Below, one piece after another: positions 9,724-32,653 of a DNA stretch of 64,000 bases. A program made the translations under genes and the position numbers. The stretch's first letter is position 1, and each line of letters starts with the position of its first letter. Under the pieces are notes generated by a model, which worked only from the letters and a program-made list of their open reading frames with translations, searched no databases and was not told where the DNA came from. This DNA comes from Chitinophagales bacterium (GTDB taxonomy: Bacteria > Bacteroidota > Bacteroidia > Chitinophagales > JADIYW01), in NCBI GenBank assembly GCA_046329805.1, contig JAXLUA010000004.1, forward strand, positions 183,263 to 247,262, given 5' to 3'.

Positions 9724-9728
9724 TTGGC

Positions 9729-13171: not shown

Positions 13172-13182
13172 TCAAAAAACCA

Positions 13183-16926: not shown

Positions 16927-17027
16927 TGGTTTATCTAAACAAATATACGCAAATTATACCAATCAGTAAGGTTTTTTTATACACATTTTTTTACTATTTT
17001 TGATTTAATCTATTAACTATATATACT

Positions 17028-17903
17028 ATGAATGTTGGCTCTAAAAAACACCTGCCTAAGTCTTCAAACTTTGAAGTATTTCGTTATCAGTTAGTTGTCG
17101 ACAAAACGCTGCAAATGGATATGTTTAAACAGTACCAAACAGCAGAAGACATCAGAGCAGACAAAAACAACATCTTTCACGAAATTCTAAATGCTCCAAA
17201 TTTCAATTTTTATTCCAGTAAGTCAGAGATAACATCGAAACTCCTCTATCAGAAAGATACGATGTACTATTACAAAATTGGAGTTAAAAGAAATGCAAAG
17301 GTCTTTAAGAAAGATTTTACAGAATCCAATATTGAAAACTACCCGAATATTATTGTAGCTATCAATAACCACCCTGAAGTACAGAAAATTGCCATTCAGG
17401 ATAATATTAAAGCATTTGGTAATTGTAAGATAGTTAGCCATTTCATACAAGACACTATTGATACAAAACTGAAAGCATACAATCTTTCAATGATGGCTGA
17501 ACCCTTATTTGATAAAAAAGAATTTTGGAAACTGGTACATAAATACCCGAAACAAATCCGGCAACTAACTTTTGATTTAGTTTCGCCGAATATGGCTAAT
17601 ATTTCTAAAAACTTAGACATTAATCTCAAACAGTTATACGAAGATACAAACACACACAAAACAAAAGTCGAATTAAATGCGGATGAGGGTAGTTATTTAG
17701 ACATTAAAGACAGTAGCAAATTCATAAATAGTTTAGTAGATTACAGTGCAGATGGTGGTGGTAATATACACATGCGTGTAAATGGTATTCGTAAGAAATT
17801 GCACACTGCCGAATCTCCAACAGAATTTAATATAGATGAAATGCTTCTAAAGAATGATGATTGGGAAAAACTAGACGTGTATTTTAGAGAAATCCTAATT
17901 TAA
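17028..17903 (+). CDS. Hypothetical protein (291 aa), divergent from the MerR-like gene
   Basis: Clean ORF with no signal peptide and no motif recognised. Confidence 0.55.
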   Translation: MNVGSKKHLPKSSNFEVFRYQLVVDKTLQMDMFKQYQTAEDIRADKNNIFHEILNAPNFNFYSSKSEITSKLLYQKDTMYYYKIGVKRNAKVFKKDFTESNIENYPNIIVAINNHPEVQKIAIQDNIKAFGNCKIVSHFIQDTIDTKLKAYNLSMMAEPLFDKKEFWKLVHKYPKQIRQLTFDLVSPNMANISKNLDINLKQLYEDTNTHKTKVELNADEGSYLDIKDSSKFINSLVDYSADGGGNIHMRVNGIRKKLHTAESPTEFNIDEMLLKNDDWEKLDVYFREILI

Positions 17904-17951
17904 GATGCAAAATTTTTCAAATAAATAATTGGTCTCTAATATCAAATTTTC

Positions 17952-17981
17952 GACAGTATTTATAAAAACTGTCCATTTTTT
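17952..17981 (+). terminator. Weak rho-independent terminator after the 291-aa gene
   Basis: Stem GACAGT (17952-17957) / ACTGTC (17968-17973) followed by a T6 run (17976-17981). Confidence 0.4.
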
Positions 17982-18027
17982 GGTTTCAAATATTTTCCTG
18001 TAAATTCATTTTACTGTCCATTTTTTG
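17968..18027 (+). promoter_or_regulatory. Two 15-bp direct repeats ACTGTCCATTTTTTG upstream of abiEi (candidate operator)
   Basis: Exact copies at 17968-17982 and 18013-18027, immediately 5' of the AbiEi ORF. Confidence 0.45.
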
Positions 18028-18034
18028 AACATAA

Positions 18035-18820
18035 GTGCTATATTTACATCTGATAACAATATATATCGTGCCTAAAGATTTTATTACAGAACAGCTAAAA
18101 CAAAGATTTATGGGTCAACCCCATATCTCCAGAGAAGAATTGCTGCACTTTTACAGGTCATTTGAGCCTGATTTAAAGGAAGGAACTTTTGGTTGGCGTA
18201 TTTATGCATTGAAAGAAAAAAACTTATTAAAACCTGTAAGAAAAGGGGTTTATACCCTATCTGTCAAGCCACAATTCCATCCTGCCCTAGATGCTAAGTT
18301 AAAAGAACTGTCAAACAAGATTGGAAAGCAGTTTCCATTTGCCAAATATTGCGTCTGGAATACTCGCTGGCTGAATGAATGGATGATACACCAGCCCGGC
18401 AGATTCTTAACCATAGTGGAGGTGGAAACTTCGGCAACAGAATCCGCTTTTTATTTTCTAAAAGACAATAACTTCAAAAATGTATTCCTCAACCCTGATG
18501 AAGAAGTACTGGAAAGATATATTTATGAAGAATCAGAAACCATAATTGTAAAAACACTGGTATCTAAATCACCGCTGAAAAAAGAAAAAAAGATTCCTGT
18601 TCCGGCAGCAGAAAAGATTTTGGTAGATTTATTTATCGACAAAAAGATATTTGCCCCCTTTCAGGGAAGTGAATTAGTCTATATCTTCAATAACGTATAT
18701 AAGCAATATGCGCTGAATATGACAAAACTACTGGCTTATGCCAAACGCAGAACCAAAGAGCCTGAACTATTGGATTTCATCACTAAGAATACACAACTCA
18801 CAGAATTATTAAGCGAATGA
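18035..18820 (+). CDS. abiEi: AbiEi-family type IV antitoxin / transcriptional regulator
   Basis: The N-terminal wHTH-like segment ITEQLKQRFMGQPHISREELLHFY...KNLLKPVRKGVYTL is typical of the AbiEi_4 N-domain. A 4-bp ATGA overlap joins it to the downstream AbiEii gene. The start is ambiguous (GTG 18035, GTG 18068 or ATG 18110). Confidence 0.7.
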   Translation: MLYLHLITIYIVPKDFITEQLKQRFMGQPHISREELLHFYRSFEPDLKEGTFGWRIYALKEKNLLKPVRKGVYTLSVKPQFHPALDAKLKELSNKIGKQFPFAKYCVWNTRWLNEWMIHQPGRFLTIVEVETSATESAFYFLKDNNFKNVFLNPDEEVLERYIYEESETIIVKTLVSKSPLKKEKKIPVPAAEKILVDLFIDKKIFAPFQGSELVYIFNNVYKQYALNMTKLLAYAKRRTKEPELLDFITKNTQLTELLSE

Positions 18821-19908
18821 TAGTACCGGCATCATATACTCCTGAATGGATAATGGGAAAAAGGAAAATATATCCTAAAAGTGACCCTTCTATAATGGAA
18901 AAGGTTATTTATGCACTAACATTAGTGGAACAGTTAGCCCAAACAGACCTAGCATTTACATTTAAAGGCGGCACAAGTCTCTTACTGATATTGCCAGAAC
19001 CAAAAAGATTCTCAATTGACGTAGATATTGTGACAACTGAAAGCAGAGAAAAAATTGAAGCAATATTAGCAGACATTTGTAAGCAAGGTATATTCAGCAA
19101 ATTTGAGTTAGATAAATTAAGAAGTTATAAGCCTGGTATACCAAAAGCACATTATCTGCTTACATTCTATTCACAATTAGAAAGTAAAGAAAAAATAATC
19201 CTGCTGGATGTATTATACGAAGAACATGGCTACCCGGCATTAATACAAGCTCCAATAACAAACGAATGGATTCAGACAGATGACAACCTGTTAACGGTAC
19301 AGATACCAACCGTAGATTCTATTACTGGTGATAAGCTAACTGCTTATGCGCCTAATACGATTGGCATTCATTTCAGAGTTGAACATAAGGATGGCAGAGT
19401 AACAGAAAAGCAAATGGAAGTAATGAAACAACTATTTGACATTGGTATTTTATTTGAAAAAATTACTAATCTTACTCATTTTAAACAATCTTTCGCTACC
19501 ACATCAGCAAAAGAGATTGCATACAGAACCGAACAAAACATTACACAGGAAACTGTATTAAATGACATTATAGATACCTCCTTGATGATTGCTTCAATGG
19601 GCAAATTCTTTGATGCTAATGGAGATTTTAAACATATACAAGTTGGGCTTACCGGGCTTAAATCATTTATCTATAATGGTGCATTTCGTATTGATGAAGC
19701 GATAGTGGCATCATCGAAAGCTGTTTATCTGGCAGCTATCATCCTGACAGATTATAAAGGAGAAATTCAACGTTGGCAGGATGGTGATGACATTATGAAG
19801 TACGTGATAAAACCTATCGAATATCAATTCCTAAATAAACTAAGAAATATTCCCGGTGCTCCGCTATTTTATTGGCATCAAACATTAAGTTTGATGGATA
19901 AACTATAA
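18817..19908 (+). CDS. abiEii: AbiEii/AbiGii-family nucleotidyltransferase toxin (DUF1814)
   Basis: FTFKGGTSLLLIL...RFSIDVDIV matches the nucleotidyltransferase GS-x-DxD pattern of AbiEii. It is paired with AbiEi. Confidence 0.75.
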   Translation: MIVPASYTPEWIMGKRKIYPKSDPSIMEKVIYALTLVEQLAQTDLAFTFKGGTSLLLILPEPKRFSIDVDIVTTESREKIEAILADICKQGIFSKFELDKLRSYKPGIPKAHYLLTFYSQLESKEKIILLDVLYEEHGYPALIQAPITNEWIQTDDNLLTVQIPTVDSITGDKLTAYAPNTIGIHFRVEHKDGRVTEKQMEVMKQLFDIGILFEKITNLTHFKQSFATTSAKEIAYRTEQNITQETVLNDIIDTSLMIASMGKFFDANGDFKHIQVGLTGLKSFIYNGAFRIDEAIVASSKAVYLAAIILTDYKGEIQRWQDGDDIMKYVIKPIEYQFLNKLRNIPGAPLFYWHQTLSLMDKL

Positions 19909-20000
19909 AAATAAACTTATGTAAATTAACAGATAAAACAAAAATGGAATAAAGAATGAGTTTGTCTATTATGTTTTAACTTCTTTTAATTAAACCAGCC

Positions 20001-21953
20001 ATGACACTAAGTGAAGAAATAATAAACAAGCTATATTCAAAGCGTTCAGTGCTTATTGGAAGGTCTGAAAATGAATCACAGAATGATATAGTGGTACATG
20101 ACCTAACCGTCTCTCGTACTCATTGCAAACTCGAAATTTCATCGGATAACAAAATAATTCTCACCGATTTAAATTCCAAAAATCATACCTACGTAAATGG
20201 AAATCCATTGATAAATGATTCTATGGTCATTAGTGAAACAGATTTTATTTCTATTGGCAATAATGTTTTTTCACTCAGTAAAAAAAGTATCCCAAAAGAA
20301 ATAGCTATTACGGCTATAGACATAAGCAAGAGATTTTCCAATAATAAAGTTGCCTTAAACCCTATTTCCTTCAGTATATTTCAGGGTGATTTTGTTGCTA
20401 TTCTTGGTCCAACAGGTTGTGGTAAATCTGTCTTACTTAAAGTCTTAAATGGGTTTGACCCGGCAAGCTCCGGCAAGGTTGAGTTTTGCGGAAATGATTT
20501 ATATAAAGACTATAAGAAATGTAAAGAATTAATTGGATATGTACCGCAAGATGATATTGTACACAGCGAATTAACAGTTAAAGAAGCATTATATTTTTCA
20601 TTTCAACTGAGGAATAAGGAAAATGTGGATGATGATATAGTCTACAAAAAAATCAATGAAGTACTAAGTGAACTTAATTTATCAGATGCCGCTATCTTAA
20701 ATCAAAAGGTTGGCTCTTTATCCGGTGGACAAAGAAAAAGAATTTCGATTGCAATTGAATTATTTTCAGACCCTAAAGTCTTATACCTCGATGAACCAAC
20801 TTCTCCATTAGATCCTGAAACGATTGAAGAGTTTTTAGGAAGTATAAAAAAACTGACAGAAAAAGGAACTACCATTATAATGGTTACACACAAACCCGAA
20901 GATTTAAACTTTGTTGACAGAGTCATATGGTTAGGCACGGGTGGTTATTTAGCGTATTATGGAAATAAGGATAAATTCCTGGATTACTTTAAAAAAGAAA
21001 ATGCTATAAATATTTACACTGAACTGAAGAATAAGGATAAAGCACGTTCTTGGTATGAAAAATGGTTTTCTAATTATGACAAAAAAAAGGAAAAACCTGC
21101 AACTGTTACAGAAACAAAATCAGATTATCCCTTCTTTAGGCAACTATATTGGTTGACATACAGATACTTTAAGATAAAACTTAACGACAAAGGATATATG
21201 GCATTATTGTTAGCACAGGCTCCTGTCATAGCATGTTTAATTATTCTTATTTTCGATAAGCTAACGTTATCTGTATTGTTTATGATAAACCTGACCGCTA
21301 TATGGCTTGGTTCCAGCAATGCGGCTCGTGAAATAGTAGCAGAATTACCAATCTATCACAGAGAAAGAATGTACAATCTGAAGTTATTGCCTTATGTTCT
21401 GTCAAAACTTTTCGTGCAATTTATTTTTTCTACAGTTCAGTCATTCCTGTTTATAAGTATATTGTTTCTCTTTTATTTCAATTCTGTTATTTCTTTAGAA
21501 CATTACCTGCCGCTTGTAGGAATGATGATTTTAATTTCCATGTCAGCAGTAATAATGGGACTGCTGTTATCAGCTATAGTGAAAACAAGCGAACAGGCTA
21601 TTGCTTTATTGCCCTTACTGCTTATACCCCAGCTTATACTGTCAGGGGTTATTTATCCTATAAACCATAATAAGGTAATAGAATTTTTAAGTTGTGTTTC
21701 ATTAGGCAGGTTAGGCACATCTGCATTTTCGTGTATTCAAGAAAATGTAGAACATGCATTTGCCATAATTAATCAGCATGGATTCATGCACACCCAATAT
21801 AAAGTTATTAATACTGCGGAAGCACTTAATTTACCTGTTACACTGGGCTTAGACCCGAAAAACATGACACTGAATGTTATAATGGTTATTATACTATGTG
21901 CTATATTTATGCTGGGTACTGTTTTTGCATTAAAAAAGAAAGATACGATATGA
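20001..21953 (+). CDS. FHA domain-fused ABC exporter (FHA, NBD, ABC-2/ABCG-type permease in one polypeptide)
   Basis: FHA: IGRSENESQNDIVVHDLTVSRTHCKLE...DLNSKNHTYVNG. Walker A GPTGCGKS, Q-loop VPQDD, signature LSGGQRKR, Walker B VLYLDEPTS, H-loop VTHKP. About six C-terminal TM helices. Confidence 0.85.
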   Translation: MTLSEEIINKLYSKRSVLIGRSENESQNDIVVHDLTVSRTHCKLEISSDNKIILTDLNSKNHTYVNGNPLINDSMVISETDFISIGNNVFSLSKKSIPKEIAITAIDISKRFSNNKVALNPISFSIFQGDFVAILGPTGCGKSVLLKVLNGFDPASSGKVEFCGNDLYKDYKKCKELIGYVPQDDIVHSELTVKEALYFSFQLRNKENVDDDIVYKKINEVLSELNLSDAAILNQKVGSLSGGQRKRISIAIELFSDPKVLYLDEPTSPLDPETIEEFLGSIKKLTEKGTTIIMVTHKPEDLNFVDRVIWLGTGGYLAYYGNKDKFLDYFKKENAINIYTELKNKDKARSWYEKWFSNYDKKKEKPATVTETKSDYPFFRQLYWLTYRYFKIKLNDKGYMALLLAQAPVIACLIILIFDKLTLSVLFMINLTAIWLGSSNAAREIVAELPIYHRERMYNLKLLPYVLSKLFVQFIFSTVQSFLFISILFLFYFNSVISLEHYLPLVGMMILISMSAVIMGLLLSAIVKTSEQAIALLPLLLIPQLILSGVIYPINHNKVIEFLSCVSLGRLGTSAFSCIQENVEHAFAIINQHGFMHTQYKVINTAEALNLPVTLGLDPKNMTLNVIMVIILCAIFMLGTVFALKKKDTI

Positions 21954-22789
21954 ATATAAAGACAAGTAGATTGGTTATTTTATTCCTTTTGTTCGCTACA
22001 TCTTGTAAAGGAAATACCGGATTGGTGACAGAGAAAAAAATCGTTTATCAGTTTCCGAATACATCTGTAGTAGAAAAGATACCGCAGGATTGCATGGCGA
22101 AAGAGGATGATAAACTGATTAATGCTGCAAGCGGAGTTGAATCATTCTTCCTGAATGTTGTTGGCGATGAGGTTACAGAAAAGGATGAAAATAGTTATGG
22201 TAAGATGTTCAACGATGCTTTCAGAAAAGACCTGAAATTTGTTACGGATGTTAATATGAACCGCTTACAGGTTATACTAAAGAAACTTACCCCTTATGTT
22301 CAGCGAAAAGGCATTTCCTATTCCATAATACTTGTGAAAAATGATAACGATGTAAACGCCTGGACACACGCAGGTGGATATATTTACGTTACAACAGGCT
22401 TAATGAAGTTTGTAAACTCGGATGATGAACTCGCTTTTTGTATTGCTCACGAAATCGGTCACAATGAAAATGAACATTGCAAAGCATCTGTGCAACGCAT
22501 TAAAACAGCTAAGAACATGGGTGCAACCAACGAAATGACAGGTATGGCATCAACCATATTTTCGGCTGTTTTTGCAGCATTTAATCAACCACAGGAAACA
22601 GCATCCGACCTCGCAGGGGTCTATTTGATGTATAAGGCAGGTTATGAGCCGCAAAAAGCACTTGATTTTTTCGATAAGATGAGCAAAAATGAACAACCCA
22701 ATGCACTGGAGAAAATGCTGCGTTCTCACCCGTTTGCAACAGAGAGAAGAGCATGTTTACAAACGTATATAAATAATGCGGTACAATAA
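21950..22789 (+). CDS. M48-family zinc metalloprotease lipoprotein
   Basis: Lipobox LFATSC and HEIGHNENEH (HExxH). The start ATG overlaps the ABC stop (ATGA). The ORF-track start at 21896 was trimmed. Confidence 0.75.
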   Translation: MNIKTSRLVILFLLFATSCKGNTGLVTEKKIVYQFPNTSVVEKIPQDCMAKEDDKLINAASGVESFFLNVVGDEVTEKDENSYGKMFNDAFRKDLKFVTDVNMNRLQVILKKLTPYVQRKGISYSIILVKNDNDVNAWTHAGGYIYVTTGLMKFVNSDDELAFCIAHEIGHNENEHCKASVQRIKTAKNMGATNEMTGMASTIFSAVFAAFNQPQETASDLAGVYLMYKAGYEPQKALDFFDKMSKNEQPNALEKMLRSHPFATERRACLQTYINNAVQ

Positions 22790-22795
22790 GTAGAA

Positions 22796-23551
22796 ATGAG
22801 TAAGCAGAGAACAATAACATACGCATCATTTACCGGGATTGGCAAAAAAGCCAATAATGAGGATACTTACTTAACTGAGATACATGAAGAATCAGGTAGT
22901 GCTTTATGTATGGTGTGCGATGGAGTTGGAGGACAAAATAAAGGAGAGATAGCGTCTGCTTTGCTTATTGCTTCATTCAAAGAATATATGGAATCACATC
23001 CCGACTTGCCGGATGAATCCTGGGTTCAGAAAGCTATAAAATATGCGGAAGCCAGGTTTGATGCGCATACACAAGTAAATCCCGATGCAAAAGGAATGGC
23101 AAGTACATTGGCATTGTTGTATATGCACAATGACGAAGCATTGATTGCACATTGTGGCGACAGCCGCGTCTATCATTTTAGAGAAGAAGCTATTTTGTTT
23201 CAGACTAAGGACCATTCCTATGTGAACTGGCTGATTGATCGTGGTGAGATAACTATGGAACAAGTAGCCACACATCCCAAGAAAAATGTGATAACCAGAT
23301 GCATATCGGGTTCCGGGAACCCGACACAGGCGGAGATACATCACATAAAAGATTTACATTCGAATGATTACTTTTTACTCTGTACAGACGGTGTGTTGGA
23401 AGCCTGGAACAATAGAGAACTGGCAAGGTTAATGTTGCCAGAAAATAATATGCAAACAATTACTGATGAATTACAAGATAAATGCAGTCTGTTATCCATT
23501 GATAACTATACCGCCATTTCCATTAAAATAATAGAACAACAGGCATTATGA
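22796..23551 (+). CDS. PP2C-family (PPM) Ser/Thr protein phosphatase
   Basis: GKKANNEDTYL, MVCDGVGGQNKGEIAS and LLCTDGV metal-binding Asp motifs. No signal peptide. Confidence 0.85.
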   Translation: MSKQRTITYASFTGIGKKANNEDTYLTEIHEESGSALCMVCDGVGGQNKGEIASALLIASFKEYMESHPDLPDESWVQKAIKYAEARFDAHTQVNPDAKGMASTLALLYMHNDEALIAHCGDSRVYHFREEAILFQTKDHSYVNWLIDRGEITMEQVATHPKKNVITRCISGSGNPTQAEIHHIKDLHSNDYFLLCTDGVLEAWNNRELARLMLPENNMQTITDELQDKCSLLSIDNYTAISIKIIEQQAL

Positions 23552-24336
23552 ACTTGAAACTTTCTTCTTACATGAAGCATCTGCTGATTTTACTCGGGTT
23601 TATCTGCATGTGTTGTGTTGTGTATGCACAGGATAGCAAGCCAAAATCTAAAGCTACTACCAAACCGACAGTTATAACAAAGCCACCGGCTGCTGCAAAA
23701 CCTATGACAAGGACAACAACTTCATCCGTCACCACTGATAGCAACTATGGCTCTGTTACTGATATTGATGGCAATGTTTATAAAACCGTTAAAATCGGAA
23801 ACCAGATTTGGATGGCAGAAAACTTAAAAACTTCACACTATAATGATGGTACTCAGATACCTAACATAACTGATGGTAACAAATGGGTCTATTTAACAAC
23901 TGGTGCATATTGTTATTATGATAACGAGTATAAGAATAATACAATATATGGCAAGCTATATAATTGGTATGCCGTAAATACGGGTAAACTCGCGCCTAAA
24001 GGATGGCATATACCTACCGATGCGGAATGGTTAATATTAACTACCTTTTTAGGTGGCGAGACTATAGCAGGTGGTAAAATGAAATCTACAAAATATTGGA
24101 AATTACCAAATATAGGGGCAACTAATAACAGTGGTTTTAACTGTTTGCCGGCTGGTTATCGAACCCACATCTATGGTTTATATAACAGTATAGGATATTG
24201 CTGCTACTTTTGGTCTACCACAGAAGGTAATATTTATCCCGCATGGTATCGATCTCTCAGAAACACTAATTCTAATACGATTAGGGACCTTGACAATAAA
24301 GAAAGTGGCTATAGTGTTCGATGTATAAAAGATTAA
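23548..24336 (+). CDS. Secreted FISUMP-domain protein (Fibrobacter succinogenes major paralogous domain, TIGR02145-like)
   Basis: DIDGNVYKTVKIGNQIWMAENL...YGKLYNWYAV...KGWHIPTDAEW...SGFNCLPAGYR...YFWSTTE...GYSVRCIKD. Signal peptide ends VYA|QD. ATGA overlap with the PP2C stop. Confidence 0.8.
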   Translation: MNLKLSSYMKHLLILLGFICMCCVVYAQDSKPKSKATTKPTVITKPPAAAKPMTRTTTSSVTTDSNYGSVTDIDGNVYKTVKIGNQIWMAENLKTSHYNDGTQIPNITDGNKWVYLTTGAYCYYDNEYKNNTIYGKLYNWYAVNTGKLAPKGWHIPTDAEWLILTTFLGGETIAGGKMKSTKYWKLPNIGATNNSGFNCLPAGYRTHIYGLYNSIGYCCYFWSTTEGNIYPAWYRSLRNTNSNTIRDLDNKESGYSVRCIKD

Positions 24337-24343
24337 ATAAATA

Positions 24344-25159
24344 ATGATGAAAGTAAATAAATACAATAAGAATGAAATAACTTCAGAAGAAGAAAATGCC
24401 TATGTTTCCATTCAAATAATTGAAGACGAATTAAATAAAATACAAGGCGGTTTTCCGAATAATTATAATGGTATTTTTGATGAGTTGGAAAGCATTAAAC
24501 TACTTATATCACAAATTGGAGAATTAGTGTTACATGAAGAAAAAGAAACAAAACGCAAAAGAAAGGAAATACTGAATAAAGGAGAAGAACATGAAGTCGA
24601 TGATGTATTTGAAACAACGTCAAAAACACTCAAATTCAGAGAGTACACCTACAATTCTTTGCTTTTCCTGATACACTTAAACTTCGAAAAGTATTTAATT
24701 CAGTTATGTAAGCTAATAAATTCAACCCCATTAAAGAAGGATGATATAATAAATAAATTCCCTGAATCAGAATTTGAGGATGTAGATAGTTTTTATAGAT
24801 TTCTTAATGAACAAGTATCAATAAATACAGAAGTAAAAGATGAAACCTTCCCCACAATAAGAATTTATAAAGAAATAAGGAATGCATTGTACCATAGGGA
24901 TGGGTTTACTTATAAAGAAAATGTTATAACATGGATAAAGATGAGAGAGGACATTTTATTAACAAATAAAAAAACTGGCAAGGTAAAGTGTAAAGAATCA
25001 GGAAAAAAAATTATTAAGAATGTAGAATTCCAAAAGATAAAAATCACTAATTCATCATTTCTTATTTCATATATCAATGATATAGAATCCTACTTCAAGA
25101 AGATATTGGTATTAATAAGAACACGATATTATTCTGCATACGAACAAGGTAAATTATAA
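24344..25159 (+). CDS. Cytoplasmic hypothetical protein with a HEPN-like RNxxxH motif
   Basis: No signal peptide. EIRNALYHRDG (R-x4-H with Asn after Arg) sits in a predicted helical C-terminal half. The call rests on this single motif. Confidence 0.5.
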   Translation: MMKVNKYNKNEITSEEENAYVSIQIIEDELNKIQGGFPNNYNGIFDELESIKLLISQIGELVLHEEKETKRKRKEILNKGEEHEVDDVFETTSKTLKFREYTYNSLLFLIHLNFEKYLIQLCKLINSTPLKKDDIINKFPESEFEDVDSFYRFLNEQVSINTEVKDETFPTIRIYKEIRNALYHRDGFTYKENVITWIKMREDILLTNKKTGKVKCKESGKKIIKNVEFQKIKITNSSFLISYINDIESYFKKILVLIRTRYYSAYEQGKL

Positions 25160-25165
25160 CTAAAA

Positions 25166-25501
25166 ATGAGATTAATGGTCTTAAATACTTGGAGGTGTAG
25201 TGTTTTGATTTTGTTGTTGAATGCTTGTGTTGAATATACAAATGCGCAAGACATCAAACCAAAATCTAAAATTCAGATGCAGAGTTGGCAAAATAATTTC
25301 GATGAAGTCTGGACATTCAAAGAAGGACTTGCAGTAGTTAAGAAAAATAACAAATGGGGTTATGTAGATAACACCGGTACTGTAAAAATCCCATTAATCT
25401 ATGATAAGGCTTATGGTTTTATAAATGGCGTAGCATGGGTGGTGCAAAATGGTAAAAACAGATACATTAACAAAAACGGTAATTGCGTAAAAAATTGCTG
25501 A
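25166..25501 (+). CDS. Secreted WG-repeat (KWG) protein
   Basis: Signal peptide ends TNA|QD. FKEGLAVVKKNNKWGYVDNTGTVKIPLIYDKAYGFINGVAWV matches the WG_beta_rep pattern. Confidence 0.7.
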   Translation: MRLMVLNTWRCSVLILLLNACVEYTNAQDIKPKSKIQMQSWQNNFDEVWTFKEGLAVVKKNNKWGYVDNTGTVKIPLIYDKAYGFINGVAWVVQNGKNRYINKNGNCVKNC

Positions 25502-25521
25502 TAAAATATAATATTAAAAAT

Positions 25522-26172
25522 ATGAAAAATAAATTATGTATTTTCTTAATCTCGGTGGCATACTCAGTAAACGTTGTTAATGCACAAGATAATAAACCAA
25601 AACCAAAATCAAATACAACAATGCCAAAACAATCGAATAATGCATCTAAGCCAATAGTTGTAAAATCACAATCGAAACTAGAAACAATAGAGTGGATATT
25701 AGGTAAATTTAATAAATATGCTTCAACTGACATTGAGACAAATCATTCAAATCTTAATGACAAGTTTGCAATTAAGTATTACTCTTGGAAAGTAAAATAT
25801 TATGATATTCAATACTCTATTGATGATAATTACATGAACATAAAATACAAAACTATTTCATTTGAATATAATGGTAAAATGTACATTCAGAGAGAACGGA
25901 TTACAGAAAACAATATATTGATTCCTATATACGCAATAACTTCAGTTTACAAAGTAGATAATGAATTAGCAATAACTACTATCACGAATGCAATAAAAAA
26001 TGAAGGATTCTATGTTGAAGGCAATAAAAAATCTCCTTTTAAAATAAAAAACAGCTATTTCTCAATACCGTTTTCATTTTATGAAGAAGATGATCTTGGT
26101 GAACGTATTAGCAAGGCATTTATGAACTTAAAAAAATATTATTCACCTCCTACAAACTCTGAAACATTTTAA
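25522..26172 (+). CDS. Secreted hypothetical protein
   Basis: Signal peptide MKNKLCIFLISVAYSVNVVNA|QD followed by a KPKPK linker. No family recognised. The start was trimmed from 25483. Confidence 0.6.
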   Translation: MKNKLCIFLISVAYSVNVVNAQDNKPKPKSNTTMPKQSNNASKPIVVKSQSKLETIEWILGKFNKYASTDIETNHSNLNDKFAIKYYSWKVKYYDIQYSIDDNYMNIKYKTISFEYNGKMYIQRERITENNILIPIYAITSVYKVDNELAITTITNAIKNEGFYVEGNKKSPFKIKNSYFSIPFSFYEEDDLGERISKAFMNLKKYYSPPTNSETF

Positions 26173-26186
26173 TAATAAGTTTTTTA

Positions 26187-27152
26187 TCAGAAGAAATGTT
26201 CTGTTCCTAAGATTTTTAAATACTCATCAATTTTCATTTTTTGAAAATTCGCTGAAGTTTCATACTTCATTTTTTGGTCCCCTGTAACTAAAATAACTTT
26301 TTCATTCTTTACATAGCAATTCATTAGTATATGGCTATCGTTAATTGTATTCCATATATCCCGATTCAAGTCATTAAATTTTGTTCCGGCATTGAATTTT
26401 ATGAAAAAATCCTGCATGTTTTTCATGGCAGATTTATAAATACTAATAAATAATTTCATTTCATTTTCGGAAACGGATAAGTTATATTTTTTAAAATACT
26501 GAGCAGTACCATGCAAGTAAGTTTTGGCCATAATTGAAGCAAATTTCTCTTCTTTTCCTTGTCCTTTAGTTAATGATTTATAAATTTTTTGGTCGCCAAT
26601 TTCACTTTTCTCTAAGTTTACATTTGGATTAAATCCCTTTATAATTTGGGTAAATATTTCAAATTCATTTATTCTGTTCTCAATACAATTTATATGATTA
26701 ATTTCAATAGCATTTGCAATCTCAGAATTATCTTTTATCTGCTCAATAGTTTTACCTTTTAGTATTTCATTTGTTATGTCGTCACAAACCCTTAATACAC
26801 TGTCATTGTAAATCTTCTCATTTTCATCAATAATATCAAAAATATCATTTAAAACTATATTATTCAAGGATGGTCTGTATTTAAATTCATACTTTATTCC
26901 TGTCTGATTTCTGCCATGAAGTATTGAAGCTACTATTCCATTTAAACAGTTATCTCTTTCATTTAAATCTTGTTCATTTTTAGAAAGATGATATAATAGT
27001 TCGGTTAATACTATTACACTTAAGTGTACAGTTAATCCTTTCTCGGCTTCAGCCATTCTAATATTTTTCAATTTCTCCTCAATCTCACTAACTGAGCAGT
27101 TGAGGGTTAAATTTCTATAGGCACATGTATCAAAAATTACATTTGTATTCAT
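26187..27152 (-). CDS. Hypothetical protein, possible split PIN-like nuclease fold
   Basis: Acidic residues appear in PIN-like order: VIFDTCAY (N-terminus), LTELLYHL, INDSHIL and LVTGDQKM (C-terminus). There is a long helical insert. The assignment is weak. Confidence 0.5.
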   Translation of the reverse strand: MNTNVIFDTCAYRNLTLNCSVSEIEEKLKNIRMAEAEKGLTVHLSVIVLTELLYHLSKNEQDLNERDNCLNGIVASILHGRNQTGIKYEFKYRPSLNNIVLNDIFDIIDENEKIYNDSVLRVCDDITNEILKGKTIEQIKDNSEIANAIEINHINCIENRINEFEIFTQIIKGFNPNVNLEKSEIGDQKIYKSLTKGQGKEEKFASIMAKTYLHGTAQYFKKYNLSVSENEMKLFISIYKSAMKNMQDFFIKFNAGTKFNDLNRDIWNTINDSHILMNCYVKNEKVILVTGDQKMKYETSANFQKMKIDEYLKILGTEHFF

Positions 27153-27396
27153 ATTTATTATCTTTTTTTTCGCGACATCCGTGTCTATTTAATATAAATA
27201 TAAATATATTAAAATCCAAAGAAAATTTTGAATTATTTTTCAGTAAGCGGAAAAATTAAGCAAAATATAGGCAAATATTGTTTTTTGCCTTTTGTTTACA
27301 TAAACTTCTATGCAATCATTAAAGTAGATTATCATTTATAGATAGTTTATACCTCATTCATAGAAAATCAAAAAGATTTCTTTATTTTTAGATTTT

Positions 27397-28785
27397 ATGC
27401 TATTACACAACCAATACGAATTCAATCCTGCTACAGACCTCATTGGCAGTGGTGGCTTCGCACGTGTGTACAAGGCATTTGATATTAACCTGCACAGAAC
27501 AATTGCCCTGAAACGTTTTGACAAAAAAGACACCAAATATTCTGTATTAAATGAGATACGCCGTTGCTTCGATTTCAACCACCCCAATATCATACGTTAT
27601 CTGAATTGTTTTCAGGTAGAAAACACCGACATTTTTGGCGATAATGAAATAGTGGAGTTTGGTGTGATGGAATATGCAGATTCAGGTGATTTTAGTCAGC
27701 TAATTGATAGAAAAATCAAAGTAAGCGACGACGAATTGAAAGACATCCTAATTGGAATATTGGATGGATTGGATTATTTGCACAAACCGCAACCTCTCCA
27801 TAATAAACCATCCATCATTCATCGCGACCTAAAAGCCAGCAATATTCTTTTTGTCAGCATGGGCGACAAACTGATTCCAAAGATTTGTGATTTTGGCATC
27901 AGCAAGGAAGTAAACAGTTCCGATACTTTAACATCTACCAATACGGGCGCTTTAGGAACGGTAGAGTATATGGCACCAGAACAATTGAATATATCTAAAT
28001 TTGGGCAAGTTGGCAGACTACAACCCAATGTAGATTTCTGGGCATTGGGATGCATGCTCTATGAGTATTTTACGGACAAAGCTCCTTTTGGCAAAAGATC
28101 GGATGGTATAATGGCCATAGATATTCAGGCAAATATATTGGATAACGAACCGGTTTACCCAAATTCAATCCCTGCTAAATACCAGAAATTTATCCAACGA
28201 TGTTTAGTAAAAAACGCTGTAAATAGAGTAGCAGATGCAAATTCATTGAAGCGTATCGTTTTGGATGTTGATGAAGTTGTAGGGTCAAAGATAAAAATAG
28301 ATAAACCTAAAGTAGAACCAGAAAAAAAGTCCGATGATGCAGATACGAGATTGCTATTAACTTTTGCATACACATTAACTTTCATAGCTATAATTATAGT
28401 TGCTATCTTTCTCTACTTTCATAAAGACTCTCTATTTACTCCAAAAGAAACAAGTATAGAAAATAATGTAACTACAGATGCTGAAGTAGTTACAGAATAT
28501 ATGAAGTATACCAATACATCAGGTGAAACTTTCGATTATAATGGTGCTTTGTTAAATGGATCAATACCAAATGGAAAAGGAACAGCAATTTATACTAATG
28601 GCGATAAATATATTGGAGATTTTCAGAATGGATTAAGAAATGGTACCGGTATTTATTATTGGTCAGACGGAGAGAAGTTTGAAGGTGAATACAAAGATAA
28701 TTTAAGAAACGGGTTTGGTAAGTATTATTCTGCAGATGGTAGTCTGATAGAACAAGGTAATTATATTAATGGTGAACTTAAATAA
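27397..28785 (+). CDS. Hanks-type Ser/Thr protein kinase with one TM helix and C-terminal MORN repeats
   Basis: GSGGFARVYKA, ALKRF, HRDLKASNILF, DFGISK and YMAPE. TM helix LLLTFAYTLTFIAIIIVAIFLYF. MORN-like repeats YTNGDKYIGDFQNGLRNGTGIYYWSDGEKFEGEYKDNLRNGFGKYY. Confidence 0.9.
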   Translation: MLLHNQYEFNPATDLIGSGGFARVYKAFDINLHRTIALKRFDKKDTKYSVLNEIRRCFDFNHPNIIRYLNCFQVENTDIFGDNEIVEFGVMEYADSGDFSQLIDRKIKVSDDELKDILIGILDGLDYLHKPQPLHNKPSIIHRDLKASNILFVSMGDKLIPKICDFGISKEVNSSDTLTSTNTGALGTVEYMAPEQLNISKFGQVGRLQPNVDFWALGCMLYEYFTDKAPFGKRSDGIMAIDIQANILDNEPVYPNSIPAKYQKFIQRCLVKNAVNRVADANSLKRIVLDVDEVVGSKIKIDKPKVEPEKKSDDADTRLLLTFAYTLTFIAIIIVAIFLYFHKDSLFTPKETSIENNVTTDAEVVTEYMKYTNTSGETFDYNGALLNGSIPNGKGTAIYTNGDKYIGDFQNGLRNGTGIYYWSDGEKFEGEYKDNLRNGFGKYYSADGSLIEQGNYINGELK

Positions 28786-28799
28786 CATAAATTAATTCG

Positions 28800-29990
28800 T
28801 TTACCACACTAATATAGGCTCATGCGGTATCCTTCCCTAAAGCCAGCCTAATACCGCATCTGTGGCTCGCAGCCCATTTTTTCTGTCATGCTTTTTGTAC
28901 CCGCCCAATATGGCACATTGCTTTCTCTTACTGTCATTCTGAGCGCAGCGAAGAATCTTGCTACAATTGTCTTCCTGAGTTTATCGAAGGGACAAAAGCA
29001 AAGCGCCATGCAAAGCTTCAAACAAAAAATCACGCCAGAAAAAAATGGTCTGAAGCATACTTAAACATAATGTGCTCTTATGGTACAGCCATGCCACGCT
29101 CATTTACATGCTTGATAATGGCTTTCCCATAAGCACACTATGTTAAGTAGCCGAGCCACAGCATCATTTTGATAAAATGATGTTCGCCTACATTCTTGCG
29201 TGCCTTGCGGTCGCTTCTTCCACTCCGCTAAAGCTACATTCCATCAGCCACCTCAGCACCTAAAGCAAGCGTGTTCCCTCATTCCATGTCGCAAAAGCCA
29301 TACATTGCTTTCCGTGTGTTGGCAGATGCATCCCACACTTATTATTTTGTGTGTAAAATTTACAAAATAATGCCACCGCTTCAATGCATCTGCTCAACCC
29401 ACTCCAAGCATCCATGCAGTTTTGCTCATTCCATTCCGTCACACACTTGCCCCTTACTACTTATCCCAAACATTCCGTAAAAGGCAACTCTATCCAATGC
29501 GTGCGGTAGCTTCTTCCATTCCGATGCATTCCGTTCAGGGTGTCGCTACTTTCATCCGCTCCGAACCCTTTCACTTCATTGCATCTTCATTCCATCAGCC
29601 ACCTCCGCAAGAAAAGCAAGAGTGCTTCGCACCCTTGCGTGATAGTGCTAACCCTCATTATTCTGCAAAAAACAACTTCTATATTTTTTTAAAAAAGGCA
29701 TTATCCATAAATCCAAAAAATAAAAAAGAAAGCAAATGTAGGGGGCTTACTAAAGCCAACGCTCATGGTCTGCAAGGTTAAAATGCATTTTTGAAAAAAA
29801 ATCTCCACCTCATTCACCTTTTATCAATAAACCAAACAGCAGTTTGTGAGGTAGTATTTTTTTCCAAAAAACCTTGACAGCCCATGCCGCGCCCCCAGAA
29901 AAAAGGCTTTCTTTTTTCTTTTTTTTTGCCGTTTTTTTTTCTTGTTTTCTTTTGGGTTTATGGGTGATGCGCGAAGCGCAGCAGAGCATA
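28800..29990. other. G+C-rich ORF-free structured region (candidate large ncRNA, or decayed MITE/REP cluster)
   Basis: No credible ORF. Nested inverted repeats: 28822-28830/28851-28859, 28860-28869/29152-29161, 29059-29083/29127-29148 and 29163-29171/29175-29183. REP-like GTCATTCTGAGCGCAGCGAAGAATC. A ~40-nt direct repeat at 29237-29276 and 29588-29628. Confidence 0.5.
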
Positions 29991-30008
29991 AAAATTAATG
30001 CTCATACT

Positions 30009-30431
30009 ATGCGTACCGTACACCTCAAAACATTTAACAAAAACTTCAACTACGAAGGTCATTTTTTCTTCATCCTGAATAAAGGATTGAACAGCGGAAA
30101 ACCAATGAAAACATCCTGCCCGAATTGCTTTGTATGCATGGCAGAAAACGAAGAACAGAAAGAGCAGTTGTACTGGCTCTGCTTTGCCCTTTGGTATTCA
30201 AAATCCTTTCATTACTACCTCAAAGGTTCTGTAATCCCTTATATTTCCATAGATGAACTAAATCAATGCCTTTCCAAATCCTTGCTTAAAACCTCTGAAA
30301 ATAAACAGGAGTTTGTAAAAGCCATCCAACAGGCAAAGAAGTTCGAGGAATTAGAAAATCTATACGAAAAGAATTTGCAGCTGATAAGGCAAGCCAGGAG
30401 AGCCATTTTTTACAAACGTTCCTTTTTATAA
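30009..30431 (+). CDS. Hypothetical protein (140 aa)
   Basis: The ORF-track ORF 29874-30431 was trimmed to the ATG at 30009. The upstream part translates T-tracts into poly-Phe. No family recognised. Confidence 0.45.
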   Translation: MRTVHLKTFNKNFNYEGHFFFILNKGLNSGKPMKTSCPNCFVCMAENEEQKEQLYWLCFALWYSKSFHYYLKGSVIPYISIDELNQCLSKSLLKTSENKQEFVKAIQQAKKFEELENLYEKNLQLIRQARRAIFYKRSFL

Positions 30432-30435
30432 AGGG

Positions 30436-30484
30436 TACATAAGGCATACATAAGTCATACGTAAGCCATACATAAGCCATACAT
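30436..30484. repeat. Iteron-like array: 4.5 tandem copies of an 11-bp unit TACATAAGNCA
   Basis: TACATAAGGCA, TACATAAGTCA, TACGTAAGCCA, TACATAAGCCA, TACAT, read directly. The array starts 5 bp after the stop at 30431. Confidence 0.9.
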
Positions 30485-30523
30485 GATTGCACCTAATACC
30501 GACTATATATATCAAAATGAAAG

Positions 30524-30557
30524 AAAATAAAAAATCCTGCACTCTCATGCAGGATTT
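30524..30557 (-). terminator. Rho-independent terminator of the minus-strand SNase/267-aa/49-aa operon
   Basis: Stem AAATCCTGCA (30532-30541) / TGCAGGATTT (30548-30557). On the minus strand it is followed by TTTTATTTTC. Confidence 0.75.
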
Positions 30558-30639
30558 AAAACCATACTTCACAAAACTGTACTATGCACCAGTGGAGGGA
30601 TTTCGACCTTGTCGCTTTGAACGCCTAAAACATTCAATA

Positions 30640-30789
30640 CTAATCACCTGTCGGACTTTCACTTTGCAATTTCTTTCTTTTTTCCTCAGCCCGCTTTCTA
30701 CGCTCTTCAAAGCTCATAGACCTTGCGCCGGTGGATGGATTCCGTCCATCCCGTTTCGCTCTTCGGAAAATTGCTGTTGACTTTACCAT
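30640..30789 (-). CDS. Small highly basic protein (49 aa), absent from the ORF track (<60 aa)
   Basis: Hand translation gives MVKSTAIFRRAKRDGRNPSTGARSMSFEERRKRAEEKRKKLQSESPTGD. Its ATG lies 1 nt after the upstream stop, and the terminator follows. Confidence 0.5.
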   Translation of the reverse strand: MVKSTAIFRRAKRDGRNPSTGARSMSFEERRKRAEEKRKKLQSESPTGD

Positions 30790-30790
30790 G

Positions 30791-31594
30791 TTAAAAAATA
30801 TTATCGATTACTAAACAATTACCAGAAGAAAATTTATAATAATTTCCGTTCACTTCCTGATAAAACTCAATACCAATGCAATTGATAACGGAAATATCAG
30901 TAGTCATTACAGTACCAGCTGGCAATGATGCTGCTATTGTTTCTCCTGCATAAGCTGCATTCAATGGTGTATACGCTCCATAAGTAGAAGAACTCAATTC
31001 ATTCAAATCTGGATTGGTAGGCTCATAAGTCCCTGTGGAATCATTATAAGCAAAATCCGATACAACACCAATGGCGTTAATAAAACGAAAATGCGTAGCT
31101 CCAATTGGTGCATTGATGGAGTTTGTAGGGTTGACTGCCAAAGTTGTTAATGTACTGGTTAATCGGTCAACTGAACTTGTCAATGAATAAGGCACATAAA
31201 CAATACTTGGAAAGGAAACGTTTTTATCAAATCCGAATCCATACAAATAAGTTCTCTGTGTGCTGATTTCCACTTTACGAACACCTCTCGCTTCCGTACC
31301 ATCTTCAAGATTAATTTTCTTCATGATAGAAGTTAATCTACCTGTAACTTGTGGGTCTGTCATGCCATTAAGTACTTCGGATAACGCAACTCTTACTGAC
31401 TTTCCAGCCTTAGCACATCCTGCGAACTCCGACATATTTTCTCTCGTTCTTTCAAACTCAGGCGCAGTTTTTACCTGTGTATCGGTAGGACCTCCTATCA
31501 TTCCAGCAAAGTAGCCTGATTGTCCTTTTATTTTAAAATGTCTTACGTCCCCGATAGTACCGACGTATTTCATAATTCCTTTTTGGCGAGCCAT
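30791..31594 (-). CDS. Hypothetical protein (267 aa)
   Basis: Clean ORF with no signal peptide and no recognised motif. Confidence 0.6.
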   Translation of the reverse strand: MARQKGIMKYVGTIGDVRHFKIKGQSGYFAGMIGGPTDTQVKTAPEFERTRENMSEFAGCAKAGKSVRVALSEVLNGMTDPQVTGRLTSIMKKINLEDGTEARGVRKVEISTQRTYLYGFGFDKNVSFPSIVYVPYSLTSSVDRLTSTLTTLAVNPTNSINAPIGATHFRFINAIGVVSDFAYNDSTGTYEPTNPDLNELSSSTYGAYTPLNAAYAGETIAASLPAGTVMTTDISVINCIGIEFYQEVNGNYYKFSSGNCLVIDNIF

Positions 31595-31621
31595 AATTTA
31601 AAGATTTAAATGTTTAAAAAA

Positions 31622-32131
31622 TTATTTACAATTATTACAATATTTATTTTTGTTTTTTAAGTTATATGCTCTCCAAAATGAAGGAGGACATACACCTGTC
31701 ATTCCACATTTCCAAAGCCCCTTATGTTCATTGATAGCTAAAATCATTATGGACTTCAGTAATGAATCATTGCTATATGTTTGATAATGCCAAGCCCAGC
31801 CGTTACGAATCAATGTGCTATCCAATCGTTGATTATTAACCCAAATATCAGCAAGAACTCTACCATACAAATCCTTCCCGGTGCTGTCATAAGAAACCAT
31901 CCTACCAGATAGTAATTTGCTTGTATTAACGAATGATAAATATCCATAAGGTTGTTTTAATTCAGGTGAATCAACATTTTTAAGTCGTACAGTAAAATCT
32001 GTATTTCCTTTCCTCAAGACATAGGTATCTCCATCTTTTACACGAACAACTCTTGCACTATCATTTGCATTAGTTTTTAATGAAATAGTTGATATTAAAA
32101 AGAGAAATATTATCTTGAATATTGCGTTCAT
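31622..32131 (-). CDS. Secreted thermonuclease (staphylococcal nuclease, SNase-like)
   Basis: Signal peptide, then VVRVKDGDTYVL...VRLKNVDSPELKQPYG...GKDLYGRVLADIWV...LIRNGWAW matches the SNc fold motifs. Confidence 0.8.
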   Translation of the reverse strand: MNAIFKIIFLFLISTISLKTNANDSARVVRVKDGDTYVLRKGNTDFTVRLKNVDSPELKQPYGYLSFVNTSKLLSGRMVSYDSTGKDLYGRVLADIWVNNQRLDSTLIRNGWAWHYQTYSNDSLLKSIMILAINEHKGLWKCGMTGVCPPSFWRAYNLKNKNKYCNNCK

Positions 32132-32174
32132 GCGTCAAATATATACACACTTTAGATAGTAATAAAACATGCAC

Positions 32175-32199
32175 TTCCGAACTATTCCGATACTTCCGT
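32175..32199. promoter_or_regulatory. Three phased direct repeats TTCCGA / TTCCGA / TTCCGT in a divergent promoter region
   Basis: Motif copies at 32175-32180, 32185-32190 and 32194-32199, spaced 10 and 9 bp. They lie between the SNase start (32131, minus) and the HTH gene start (32296, plus). Confidence 0.45.
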
Positions 32200-32295
32200 T
32201 TTATCCATGCTGTGAACTTTATTCCTTAAATTTTTATTAGTATATTTGTATAAGAGTTAGTGTAAATAATTATTGACTTTAAATGTAATTACGAA

Positions 32296-32487
32296 ATGGA
32301 AAGATTATGTATTTACCCAAAGGATGTACAAATTGTTACAGGCAAAAGCGAAAGATGGGGTAGAGAAATTATTAAAAAGATTAAAGCTAAGATTAACAAA
32401 GAGGAGCATCAGTTTGTTACTATTGATGAATTTTGTACTTACTATGGTCTTGAAGAAAACAAAGTAAAACAACTTTTAAGACTATAA
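32296..32487 (+). CDS. Small HTH DNA-binding protein (candidate excisionase / recombination directionality factor)
   Basis: MERLCIYPKDVQIVTGKSERWGREIIKKIK resembles the AlpA/excisionase-type HTH of Bacteroidota mobile elements. It sits at the island end opposite the recombinase. Confidence 0.5.
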   Translation: MERLCIYPKDVQIVTGKSERWGREIIKKIKAKINKEEHQFVTIDEFCTYYGLEENKVKQLLRL

Positions 32488-32653
32488 TCTTAACTTTGAT
32501 TATAGTAATCTCTTACTAATAGGGATATGGTTAGATACCTCTACGGGAGTATAAATACAACTAAATAGCATAGTTCAAGCCATTAGGCATTGATTCAGGA
32601 GTTAGCAGCTTTACGTTCAAAACCCCTTTTAAATCATATATTCTCTTGAAATG

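Follow-up and report, generated by a model that had tools for sequence, protein, structure and literature searches.

Rv1747, an ATP-binding cassette (ABC) transporter, is a virulence factor with a still-debated substrate, and its two FHA domains are connected through a phospho-acceptor linker. The kinase PknF positively regulates this FHA-ABC transporter through its FHA domains (PMC3138270). In the H1 type VI secretion system (T6SS) pathway of Pseudomonas aeruginosa, the outer-membrane lipoprotein TagQ, the periplasmic COG1262 (FGE-type) protein TagR and the ABC-like TagTS are combined with the Ser/Thr kinase PpkA, the PP2C phosphatase PppA and the FHA protein Fha1; this pathway senses membrane damage, and its ABC-like complex acts upstream of the kinase (PMC13584744, PMC7817224). 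Here, we describe a nine-gene cassette from a Chitinophagales bacterium, located at positions 20001-28785 of a 64,000-nucleotide stretch of contig JAXLUA010000004.1 (hereafter the window), that encodes an FHA-ABC transporter, an M48 protease, a PP2C phosphatase and a Ser/Thr kinase. On balance, we read this region as a pared-down and horizontally mobile form of an envelope operon for phospho-threonine (pThr) signalling that is conserved in Bacteroidota. We found no paper in the literature on an FHA-ABC/M48/PP2C/Ser/Thr kinase operon in Bacteroidota.

We lean towards a functional core of four genes, which encode an FHA-NBD (nucleotide-binding domain)-ABC2 half-transporter, an M48 lipoprotein protease, a PP2C phosphatase and a membrane Ser/Thr kinase. 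The half-transporter (20001-21953, plus strand, 650 aa) is ABCG-like, with a single FHA domain (residues 17-86, Pfam 6.5e-16), an NBD (ABC_tran, 119-268, 1.3e-30) that begins about 20 residues past the FHA domain, and an ABC-2 membrane domain (ABC2_membrane, 380-576, 5.5e-20) with about six transmembrane (TM) segments; its best NCBIfam match is TIGR00955 (ABCG-type). The FHA domain, the sole one of the cassette, is nearest to pThr readers of the GarA/OdhI type, and its pThr-binding residues R21, S38, H41 and N61 are invariant in relatives. The M48 zinc metalloprotease (21950-22789, plus strand; Peptidase_M48 9.8e-24) is BepA/LoiP-like, with an intact HEIGH motif and a lipobox-like leader; NCBIfam gives BepA (2.2e-18) and LoiP (2.9e-17), and PDB matches are 3c37 (5e-17) and also BepA. 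The PP2C Ser/Thr phosphatase (22796-23551, plus strand; PP2C_2 2.4e-13) is Stp1-like and cytoplasmic, with no TM segment, and matches NCBIfam Stp1_PP2C at 1.8e-52 (178 bits, for a cut-off of 230 bits). The fourth core gene, 5.4 kb downstream of the FHA-ABC gene, encodes a Hanks-type Ser/Thr kinase (27397-28785, plus strand; Pkinase 5e-50) that retains K39, HRD142, DFG165 and APE193; its one TM segment (319-337) precedes C-terminal, extracytoplasmic MORN repeats (4.3e-14), which indeed lie beyond the membrane helix as first described. Judged from sequence, then, the catalytic and pThr-binding motifs of the cassette proteins are intact. All Pfam E-values quoted for cassette proteins pass the curated cut-offs, which bears out the domain calls of the earlier note, while the best NCBIfam matches lie below theirs.

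The cassette is compact. Seven co-directional plus-strand genes occupy 20001-26172—i.e. not eight, a count at odds with both the sequence and the gene list of the earlier note—and the convergent gene and the kinase bring the total to nine. Gene coordinates and the two ATGA stop/start overlaps, at 21950 (ABC/M48) and 23548 (PP2C/FISUMP), are as first given. The remaining gaps between plus-strand genes are 6, 7, 6 and 20 nt, followed by 14 nt to the convergent 321-aa gene, and the kinase starts 244 nt beyond the start of the latter.

FHA-ABC fusions are abundant (>3,600 matches), and a species-level scan with one genome per species (about 185,000 species genomes) returned 80 loci. Three of these are close relatives of the window locus (77%, 81% and 55% identity), and in the rest, mostly two-FHA proteins from several Bacteroidota orders, the transporter is 40-47% identical to the window protein. 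An FHA hidden Markov model run on 89 open reading frames (ORFs) of the ABC cluster finds two FHA domains in 70 and one in 9, the latter mainly in the clade of the window. We then counted homologs within 10 kb of the FHA-ABC gene for 40 loci flanked by 8 kb or more of sequence on either side, with an M48-specific recount. M48 is found in 34, a Ser/Thr kinase in 33 and PP2C in 30; five loci have none, and because 29 of the 40 have all three, the clustering is far above chance. The four genes thus keep company across Bacteroidota, as the earlier note had proposed to check.

Neighbour clustering, together with Pfam on representatives, gives the usual gene order of the wider operon: a Zn-ribbon-FHA protein, a vWA-like-TM-FHA protein, PP2C, a Ser/Thr kinase, M48 (1-2 copies), LEA_2, the two-FHA ABC transporter and further Ser/Thr kinases (1-6 copies), with a FISUMP gene as recurrent first gene (9 of the 42 full-flank loci). 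For example, the Pfam-annotated locus L098 reads kinase, FHA, FHA, PP2C, FHA-M48, LEA_2, 2xFHA-ABC, kinase, and L099 is likewise an example. A total of 24 loci carry an FHA-TM-M48 fusion with intact HExxH; because relatives fuse M48 to FHA in this way, the protease is tied directly to pThr signalling. The operon is conserved across Flavobacteriales, Chitinophagales and other Bacteroidota. When 128 non-core neighbours were compared with PADLOC (top 25 of 91 matched families), AbiE matches came from two reduced-clade loci, and the other defence matches listed at E<=1e-5 were two to the PsyrT model, one to McrBC, one BrxH-like and one PDC-S02 candidate; otherwise, the genes around the wider operon are for the most part housekeeping ones or encode unremarkable domains. 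This places the wider operon in a chromosomal neighbourhood of envelope type, outside defence islands. This also changes how the locus is to be seen: the gene combination had been put forward as one not recognised as a described system, and it is no isolated novelty, since its core of four genes is a smaller form of a conserved operon. The counter-possibility raised at the time, a conserved core-genome envelope operon, comes close to describing the wider family, but does not describe the mobile clade to which the window belongs.

Some loci of the wider family depart from the usual order. L044, L087 and L088 have Ser/Thr kinase paralogs lined up downstream of FHA-ABC, as many as six in a row, which could represent diversified sensor inputs. 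Two others have a lone two-FHA ABC gene without M48, PP2C or Ser/Thr kinase: that of L016 adjoins DarT/Macro and a CARF-Card1 nuclease (4017-5678 and 1-371), and that of L097 adjoins a restriction-modification pair (7929-9916).

The reduced clade, found in 3 of the roughly 185,000 species genomes, has a single-FHA, 650-aa transporter and retains ABC-M48-PP2C plus kinase. Orthologous reduced cassettes, at 81%, 77%, 56% and 55% identity, occupy different chromosomal settings: a tRNA-Glu island (window), a thiolase/acyl-CoA dehydrogenase interval (L011, L018, L108 and L111), pheT plus a peptidyl-prolyl isomerase gene (L112), OmpA plus three FGE-sulfatase genes (L014), and a trio of DUF6943, 267-aa protein and SNase genes (L017). 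Orthologs of the MORN kinase accompany the cassette in L011, L014, L019, L111 and L112; the kinase bears MORN wherever Pfam annotation is available, which leaves out the full-length L017 kinase, 40% identical to that of the window. In L014 and L019, a Ser/Thr kinase lies about 1.7-2.8 kb downstream of ABC, directly after ABC-M48-PP2C.

In several Chitinophagales-like genomes, either the whole cassette (L011, L018, L108 and L111) or only a pair of genes for FISUMP and a 271-aa protein (L109 8662-10813; L110 2766-4917) is found, repeatedly, in the fatty-acid oxidation locus (thiolase, 3HCDH and acyl-CoA dehydrogenase). This locus, with a 23S_rRNA_IVP/bAvd-like gene adjoining, is apparently a second site of recurrent insertion. 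Some copies of the cassette are broken. The PP2C gene of L017 (7703-8425) and the kinases, FISUMP and AbiEii of L018 (14313-20389) are fragmented, and in L002 (14071-15035), an otherwise identical copy, the convergent gene is split into ORFs of 114 and 193 aa. These may reflect pseudogenisation or long-read indel errors.

In the window, the cassette sits on an island of 18,319 bp (about 18.3 kb; 14374-32692) whose borders we mapped. The left end lies in a tRNA-Glu (UUC) gene (14301-14375, plus strand; ARAGORN; Rfam tRNA 58 bits), and the island is flanked by an imperfect 15-bp direct repeat: the left attachment (att) core, TCCCCTACGGGCTAC (14359-14373), is within the 3' end of the tRNA gene, and the right core, TCCCGTACGGGCTAC (32678-32692), is identical to it at 14 of 15 positions by blastn junctions and sequence comparison. 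A look-up with the flanking GAPDH protein led to contigs of other samples without the whole region. Specifically, four empty-site contigs (L101-L103 and L106), with flanks >99% identical to the window, give blastn junctions at window positions 14373 and 32678 with a 15-bp overlap. The island is thus present in some strains and absent in others with >99% identical flanks, and the region is a tRNA-targeting integrative island, with a recombinase at one end, a repeat, and an empty site in relatives. A search for a displaced full tRNA 3' end (25-mer, <=3 mismatches) matched the tRNA alone, and an Rfam scan of the island returned nothing besides the tRNA. A large serine recombinase, the island integrase (14335-15882, minus strand; Resolvase 4.4e-28, Recombinase 7e-12, Zn_ribbon_recom), is encoded at the left end, and the 3' end of its gene overlaps tRNA-Glu.

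Beside the cassette, as first noticed, the island carries a full-length AbiE pair. AbiEi, the antitoxin (18068-18820, plus strand), matches PADLOC AbiEi (2.3e-92) and DUF6577 (1.3e-80), and AbiEii, the nucleotidyltransferase toxin (18817-19908, plus strand), matches PADLOC AbiEii (4.4e-118) and Pfam AbiEii (6.3e-17). The two genes overlap at 18817-18820, and together form an AbiE type IV toxin-antitoxin system.

Slightly better than even, in our view, are the chances that AbiE and the remaining cassette genes—i.e. the FISUMP/271-aa pair, the WG protein, the 216-aa protein and the PIN-like gene—are accessory cargo. The secreted FISUMP-domain protein (23548-24336, plus strand; Fib_succ_major 3.9e-45) and the small secreted WG-repeat protein (25166-25501, plus strand; WG_beta_rep 5.8e-20; homologs in L018, L072, L077, L081 and L108) have hydrophobic N-termini. 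A third secreted protein of 216 aa (25522-26172, plus strand; 229 aa if started from TTG 25483) has no family match and 23 weak relatives among 1.84 billion representatives. FISUMP is absent from L014, where three FGE-sulfatase proteins with the same leader are encoded directly upstream of FHA-ABC. Homology between FISUMP and FGE-sulfatase was considered, and hhalign returned no significant alignment (E 0.043, probability 1%).

The FISUMP, WG and 229-aa proteins share the end of the leader and a Lys/Pro/Thr-rich linker (AQDxKPKxK; 23624-23652, 25242-25270 and 25580-25608), and the AQDxKPK leader/linker is also found on the three FGE-sulfatase proteins of L014 (7027-9786) and on several secreted proteins of L018 (13540-17836). 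At the sequence level, it looks like a common module joined to interchangeable ligand-binding domains. Because genes of the 23S_rRNA_IVP/bAvd type are close by in L011 and L111, we considered a link between FISUMP and a diversity-generating retroelement; a repeat scan of 13000-36000 gave no pair resembling template and variable repeats in which the FISUMP gene takes part, and no reverse-transcriptase search was made.

The 271-aa protein (24344-25159, plus strand) is cytoplasmic and helical, its fold is unassigned, and it has six homolog clusters in all. Its Rx4H (R179-x4-H184, RNALYH), within an invariant EIRNALYHR motif, is the same in 6 sequences; the protein had been called HEPN-like. No HEPN signal accompanies the motif: family members have no HEPN Pfam match at E<=5, and the AlphaFold2 (AF2) model (pLDDT 79, pTM 0.76) has no Foldseek match better than E 0.13 (best PDB match E 0.38, a designed bundle), with no HEPN entry among the 50 PDB and 50 BFVD matches listed. 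We consequently set the HEPN identity aside for lack of fold and profile support, though whole-chain Foldseek could miss a small embedded core. Its gene and FISUMP form a separable pair, present without any core gene in L109 and L110.

The convergent 321-aa protein (26187-27152, minus strand; 8 homolog clusters) had been called PIN-like. Its acidic residues are conserved and in PIN-like order (D8 in FDT, E50 in LTEL, D271 in INDS and D291 in VTxD), and this part of the call stands; PIN profiles match the family of 9 members only below threshold (PIN_4 in 6, best E 0.0012; PIN in 5; PIN_5 in 2; PIN_12 in 1), the window protein itself has no PIN-clan Pfam match and an empty PDB profile search, and the AF2 model (pLDDT 42) is unusable. 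The gene is convergent and inside the cassette, after FISUMP, in all 4 contexts examined (window, L011, L111 and L112). In the last three of these, the PIN-like gene is separated from the kinase by a different AbiEi/AbiEii pair. The 271-aa, 321-aa and 216/229-aa proteins have no PHROGs match.

How might these parts work together? The mechanism we hold to be somewhat the better bet is kinase-to-FHA gating of the ABCG-like exporter, as for PknF and Rv1747, in an envelope-sensing layout like that of TagQRST-PpkA-PppA-Fha1. We infer which way the signal runs, what the cue is, what is exported and what phenotype results. The kinase would sense an extracytoplasmic cue through its MORN repeats, probably with help from the secreted lectin-like proteins (FISUMP and WG; FGE-sulfatase in relatives), and would then phosphorylate a threonine on itself or on a partner. 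Candidate sites for this pThr are the juxtamembrane part of the kinase and the linker ATVTETKSD between the NBD and the membrane domain. The N-terminal FHA domain of the exporter would bind that pThr, by which export would be switched or localised, and PP2C would reset the switch. The M48 lipoprotein may act on periplasmic envelope proteins, as BepA or LoiP do; it is placed in the same circuit because relatives fuse M48 directly to FHA. The whole unit would travel on the 18.3-kb island, inserted in tRNA-Glu by the large serine recombinase. Of the switch in the earlier note, a kinase/phosphatase/FHA device gating an exporter and/or nuclease-like effectors, the exporter half survives since the switch is tied to the exporter, whereas the effector half fares poorly, HEPN being unsupported and PIN weak.

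Several observations weigh against kinase-to-FHA gating. The single FHA domain runs straight into the NBD, whereas Rv1747 has two with a phospho-acceptor linker, and the kinase gene is outside the seven-gene operon, with the convergent PIN-like gene and the 244-nt gap intervening. The linkage to AbiE and PIN, the rarity of the clade, and the presence/absence in near-identical strains also fit a conflict function. In addition, the term 'envelope signalling' for the wider operon rests on domain logic and topology, and the direction of signalling could be reversed, given that in TagQRST the ABC-like complex is upstream of the kinase.

The possible conflict function leads to the likeliest of the alternatives, although we consider it unlikely: a kinase-gated defence or abortive-infection module, in which the kinase would sense infection or attack and the pThr/FHA switch would trigger toxic effectors (the PIN-like protein, the 271-aa Rx4H protein, deregulated export or proteolysis). 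Rarity and presence/absence polymorphism would suit such a module, as would a mobile island, the usual setting of defence genes, with a full AbiE pair directly upstream, the other AbiE pairs embedded in the cassette of three relatives, and the constant position of the PIN-like gene; toxin-antitoxin pairs, however, also just stabilise mobile DNA, and the PIN-like gene is split in the otherwise identical copy L002. TerY-P-like kinase/phosphatase modules are known as defence systems, often mobile and conflict-linked (PMC11090510). The PADLOC check that the earlier note had called for returned domain-level matches of cassette proteins to mad3, mad6, PD-T4-6 and PDC-M21C, but no system-level match. 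Specifically, the kinase matches mad6 (4.8e-61), PD-T4-6 (6.9e-44) and Stk2 (4.6e-15), and PP2C matches PDC-M21C, so that the likeness to MADS, PD-T4-6 and Stk2 is at the level of generic domains alone. MADS requires the mad6 kinase, the mad7 specificity subunit and the mad8 methylase (bioRxiv 10.1101/2023.03.30.534895). We rejected it as a candidate, with methylase and specificity subunit absent, the PADLOC mad3/mad6/mad8 matches falling on ATPase and kinase domains, and NCBIfam MAD6 scoring 87 bits for a cut-off of 460. Also against defence are the conservation of the four core genes across Bacteroidota among mostly housekeeping neighbours, the 271-aa protein, which is without HEPN fold or profile and occurs without the core, and the lack of phage-family links (PHROGs) for the unknown proteins.

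A variant of this idea, to which we also give a low probability, is that the reduced cassette is a mobile immunity module reusing a chromosomal envelope-damage circuit—i.e. a T6SS-free TagQRST-PpkA analogue—against phage adsorption, injection or contact-dependent attack. It is similarly improbable that such a module responds through pThr-gated export or proteolysis plus a nuclease. If the link to AbiE and the PIN-like gene were functional, the cassette would show a housekeeping envelope sensor turned into mobile immunity.

Somewhat less likely again is a TagQRST-like envelope-damage sensor working in the reverse direction, with the periplasmic lectin-like proteins, the lipoprotein and the ABC transporter activating the kinase. 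We give equally little credence to the corollary that FHA merely tethers the transporter to the phosphorylated kinase, with the output elsewhere in the cell. The components do parallel the threonine phosphorylation pathway of P. aeruginosa, a membrane-damage sensor (PMC13584744, PMC7817224); the wider operon has a vWA-like periplasmic domain on a TM-FHA protein, and in L014 the three FGE-sulfatase proteins with the shared leader adjoin a cassette without FISUMP. However, the transporter is of the ABC-2/ABCG type and not of the MacB/LolCDE-like TagTS type, no T6SS genes are found in the island, and the homology between FISUMP and FGE-sulfatase is not demonstrated by the hhalign comparison above. 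Because the only pThr reader sits on the transporter, the transporter is expected to receive the signal.

It is very unlikely that the cassette is unrelated island cargo lying side by side with no functional coupling, for although the 271-aa, WG and 216-aa genes vary among relatives and one pair occurs alone elsewhere, the conservation data contradict this for the core genes, which stay together from 100% to about 40% identity across several orders, are translationally coupled by ATGA overlaps, and are fused to FHA in relatives (FHA-M48 and FHA-ABC).

The rest of the island follows a simple order: recombinase, MerR-like protein, 291-aa protein, AbiE pair, nine-gene cassette, non-coding stretch, and the DUF6943/267-aa/SNase trio. 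The MerR-like helix-turn-helix protein (16102-16926, minus strand; MerR_1 1e-07) is possibly an excision or regulatory factor, and the 291-aa protein (17028-17903, plus strand) has no Pfam, PADLOC or PHROGs match; we assign both to the island backbone. The right-hand cargo (29874-32131) comprises DUF6943 (plus strand; 3.6e-46), the 267-aa protein (minus strand) and a secreted SNase homolog (minus strand; 3.3e-16), and the same trio follows the cassette in L017. The secreted staphylococcal-nuclease homolog (31622-32131) has a weak PADLOC match to C3a212 (SNc+LTD, 4.4e-07) and PHROGs endonuclease matches.

The interval between the kinase and DUF6943 (28786-29960), outside the signalling cassette, is a conserved, structured non-coding stretch of about 1.15 kb. 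It shares 80-91% nucleotide identity with L017, compared with 71-73% for the flanking genes; its longest ORF is <=119 aa, and its indels are not multiples of 3. The plus strand folds with z = -4.1, perfect hairpins are present, and a 57-nt repeat occurs internally (29217-29273 and 29568-29624). The stretch matches no Rfam family and is absent from viral contigs; the three metagenome contigs with a match are themselves copies of the island, and the stretch is seen only in this island family. A structured RNA is one possibility, a cis-acting site of the element another.

In L104 (7352-9812), a different small element, coding for a Phage_CRI-like replication protein and ORFs of 100 and 210 aa, occupies the tRNA-Glu site (window 14373/32665), and because of this second element we regard the site as an integration hotspot. 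A tandem 7-nt array (ACCATTT/ACTATTT, about 18 copies; 13058-13183) directly follows the stop codon of the GAPDH gene on the minus strand (13183-14184).

Signalling through Ser/Thr kinases, PP2C and FHA is almost unexplored in Bacteroidota. The conserved operon of about eight genes newly defined here, where FHA domains recur on the ABC exporter, the M48 protease, a membrane protein with a vWA-like domain and a Zn-ribbon protein, suggests, from its domain content, a multi-protein complex of the envelope that assembles on phospho-threonine. The window holds a naturally minimised four-gene version of it on an 18-kb island, and since isogenic island-free strains exist, this version offers a compact, clonable entry point. 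To our knowledge, the signal sensed by TagQRST is still unknown, and a tractable relative could inform both this question and that of the Rv1747 substrate.

How, then, does the locus compare with described systems? TerY-P (vWA TerY, PP2C and a kinase with a Zn ribbon) resembles the wider operon, which has vWA-like, PP2C, Ser/Thr kinase and Zn-ribbon proteins, but there FHA, and not the kinase, is the fusion partner of the Zn ribbon and of the vWA-like domain. We rejected TerY-P membership for the window cassette itself, which lacks both a vWA gene and a Zn ribbon and whose kinase ends in a TM segment and MORN. The M48 protein is like BepA, LoiP and YcaL in its HExxH, lipoprotein-type leader and similar size, and differs in scoring below the NCBIfam cut-offs, in having no TPR, and in its genetic coupling to pThr signalling.

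The likeness to TagQRST-PpkA-PppA-Fha1 is one of composition: a membrane Ser/Thr kinase, PP2C, an FHA reader, an ABC-type transporter and, as putative counterparts, a lipoprotein and a periplasmic FGE/lectin-like protein. By contrast, the window transporter is of the ABC-2 type and carries FHA itself, whereas TagTS is COG1136/COG4591; the window lipoprotein is an M48 protease and probably unrelated to TagQ, and the kinase ectodomain is MORN, while that of the PpkA-pathway kinase is vWA. No T6SS domains are found among the island genes with Pfam.

Closest in architecture is Rv1747, which likewise joins FHA, NBD and an ABC-2/ABCG-like membrane domain in a single chain and has a Hanks kinase gene close by, and full-length FHA-ABC homologs (about 27-33% identity) are also present on actinobacterial plasmids, including mycobacterial ones. 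The window protein differs in having one FHA domain and no phospho-acceptor linker between FHA domains, and the window operon, compared with PknF/Rv1747, has in addition a dedicated PP2C, an M48 lipoprotein and lectin-like secreted proteins; its host belongs to Bacteroidota, and its setting is a mobile island. Finally, compared with the wider Bacteroidota operon, the window is without LEA_2, the two stand-alone FHA proteins and the second FHA of the ABC transporter, and its M48 is a lipoprotein without FHA, while it gains the PIN-like gene, AbiE and the island setting.

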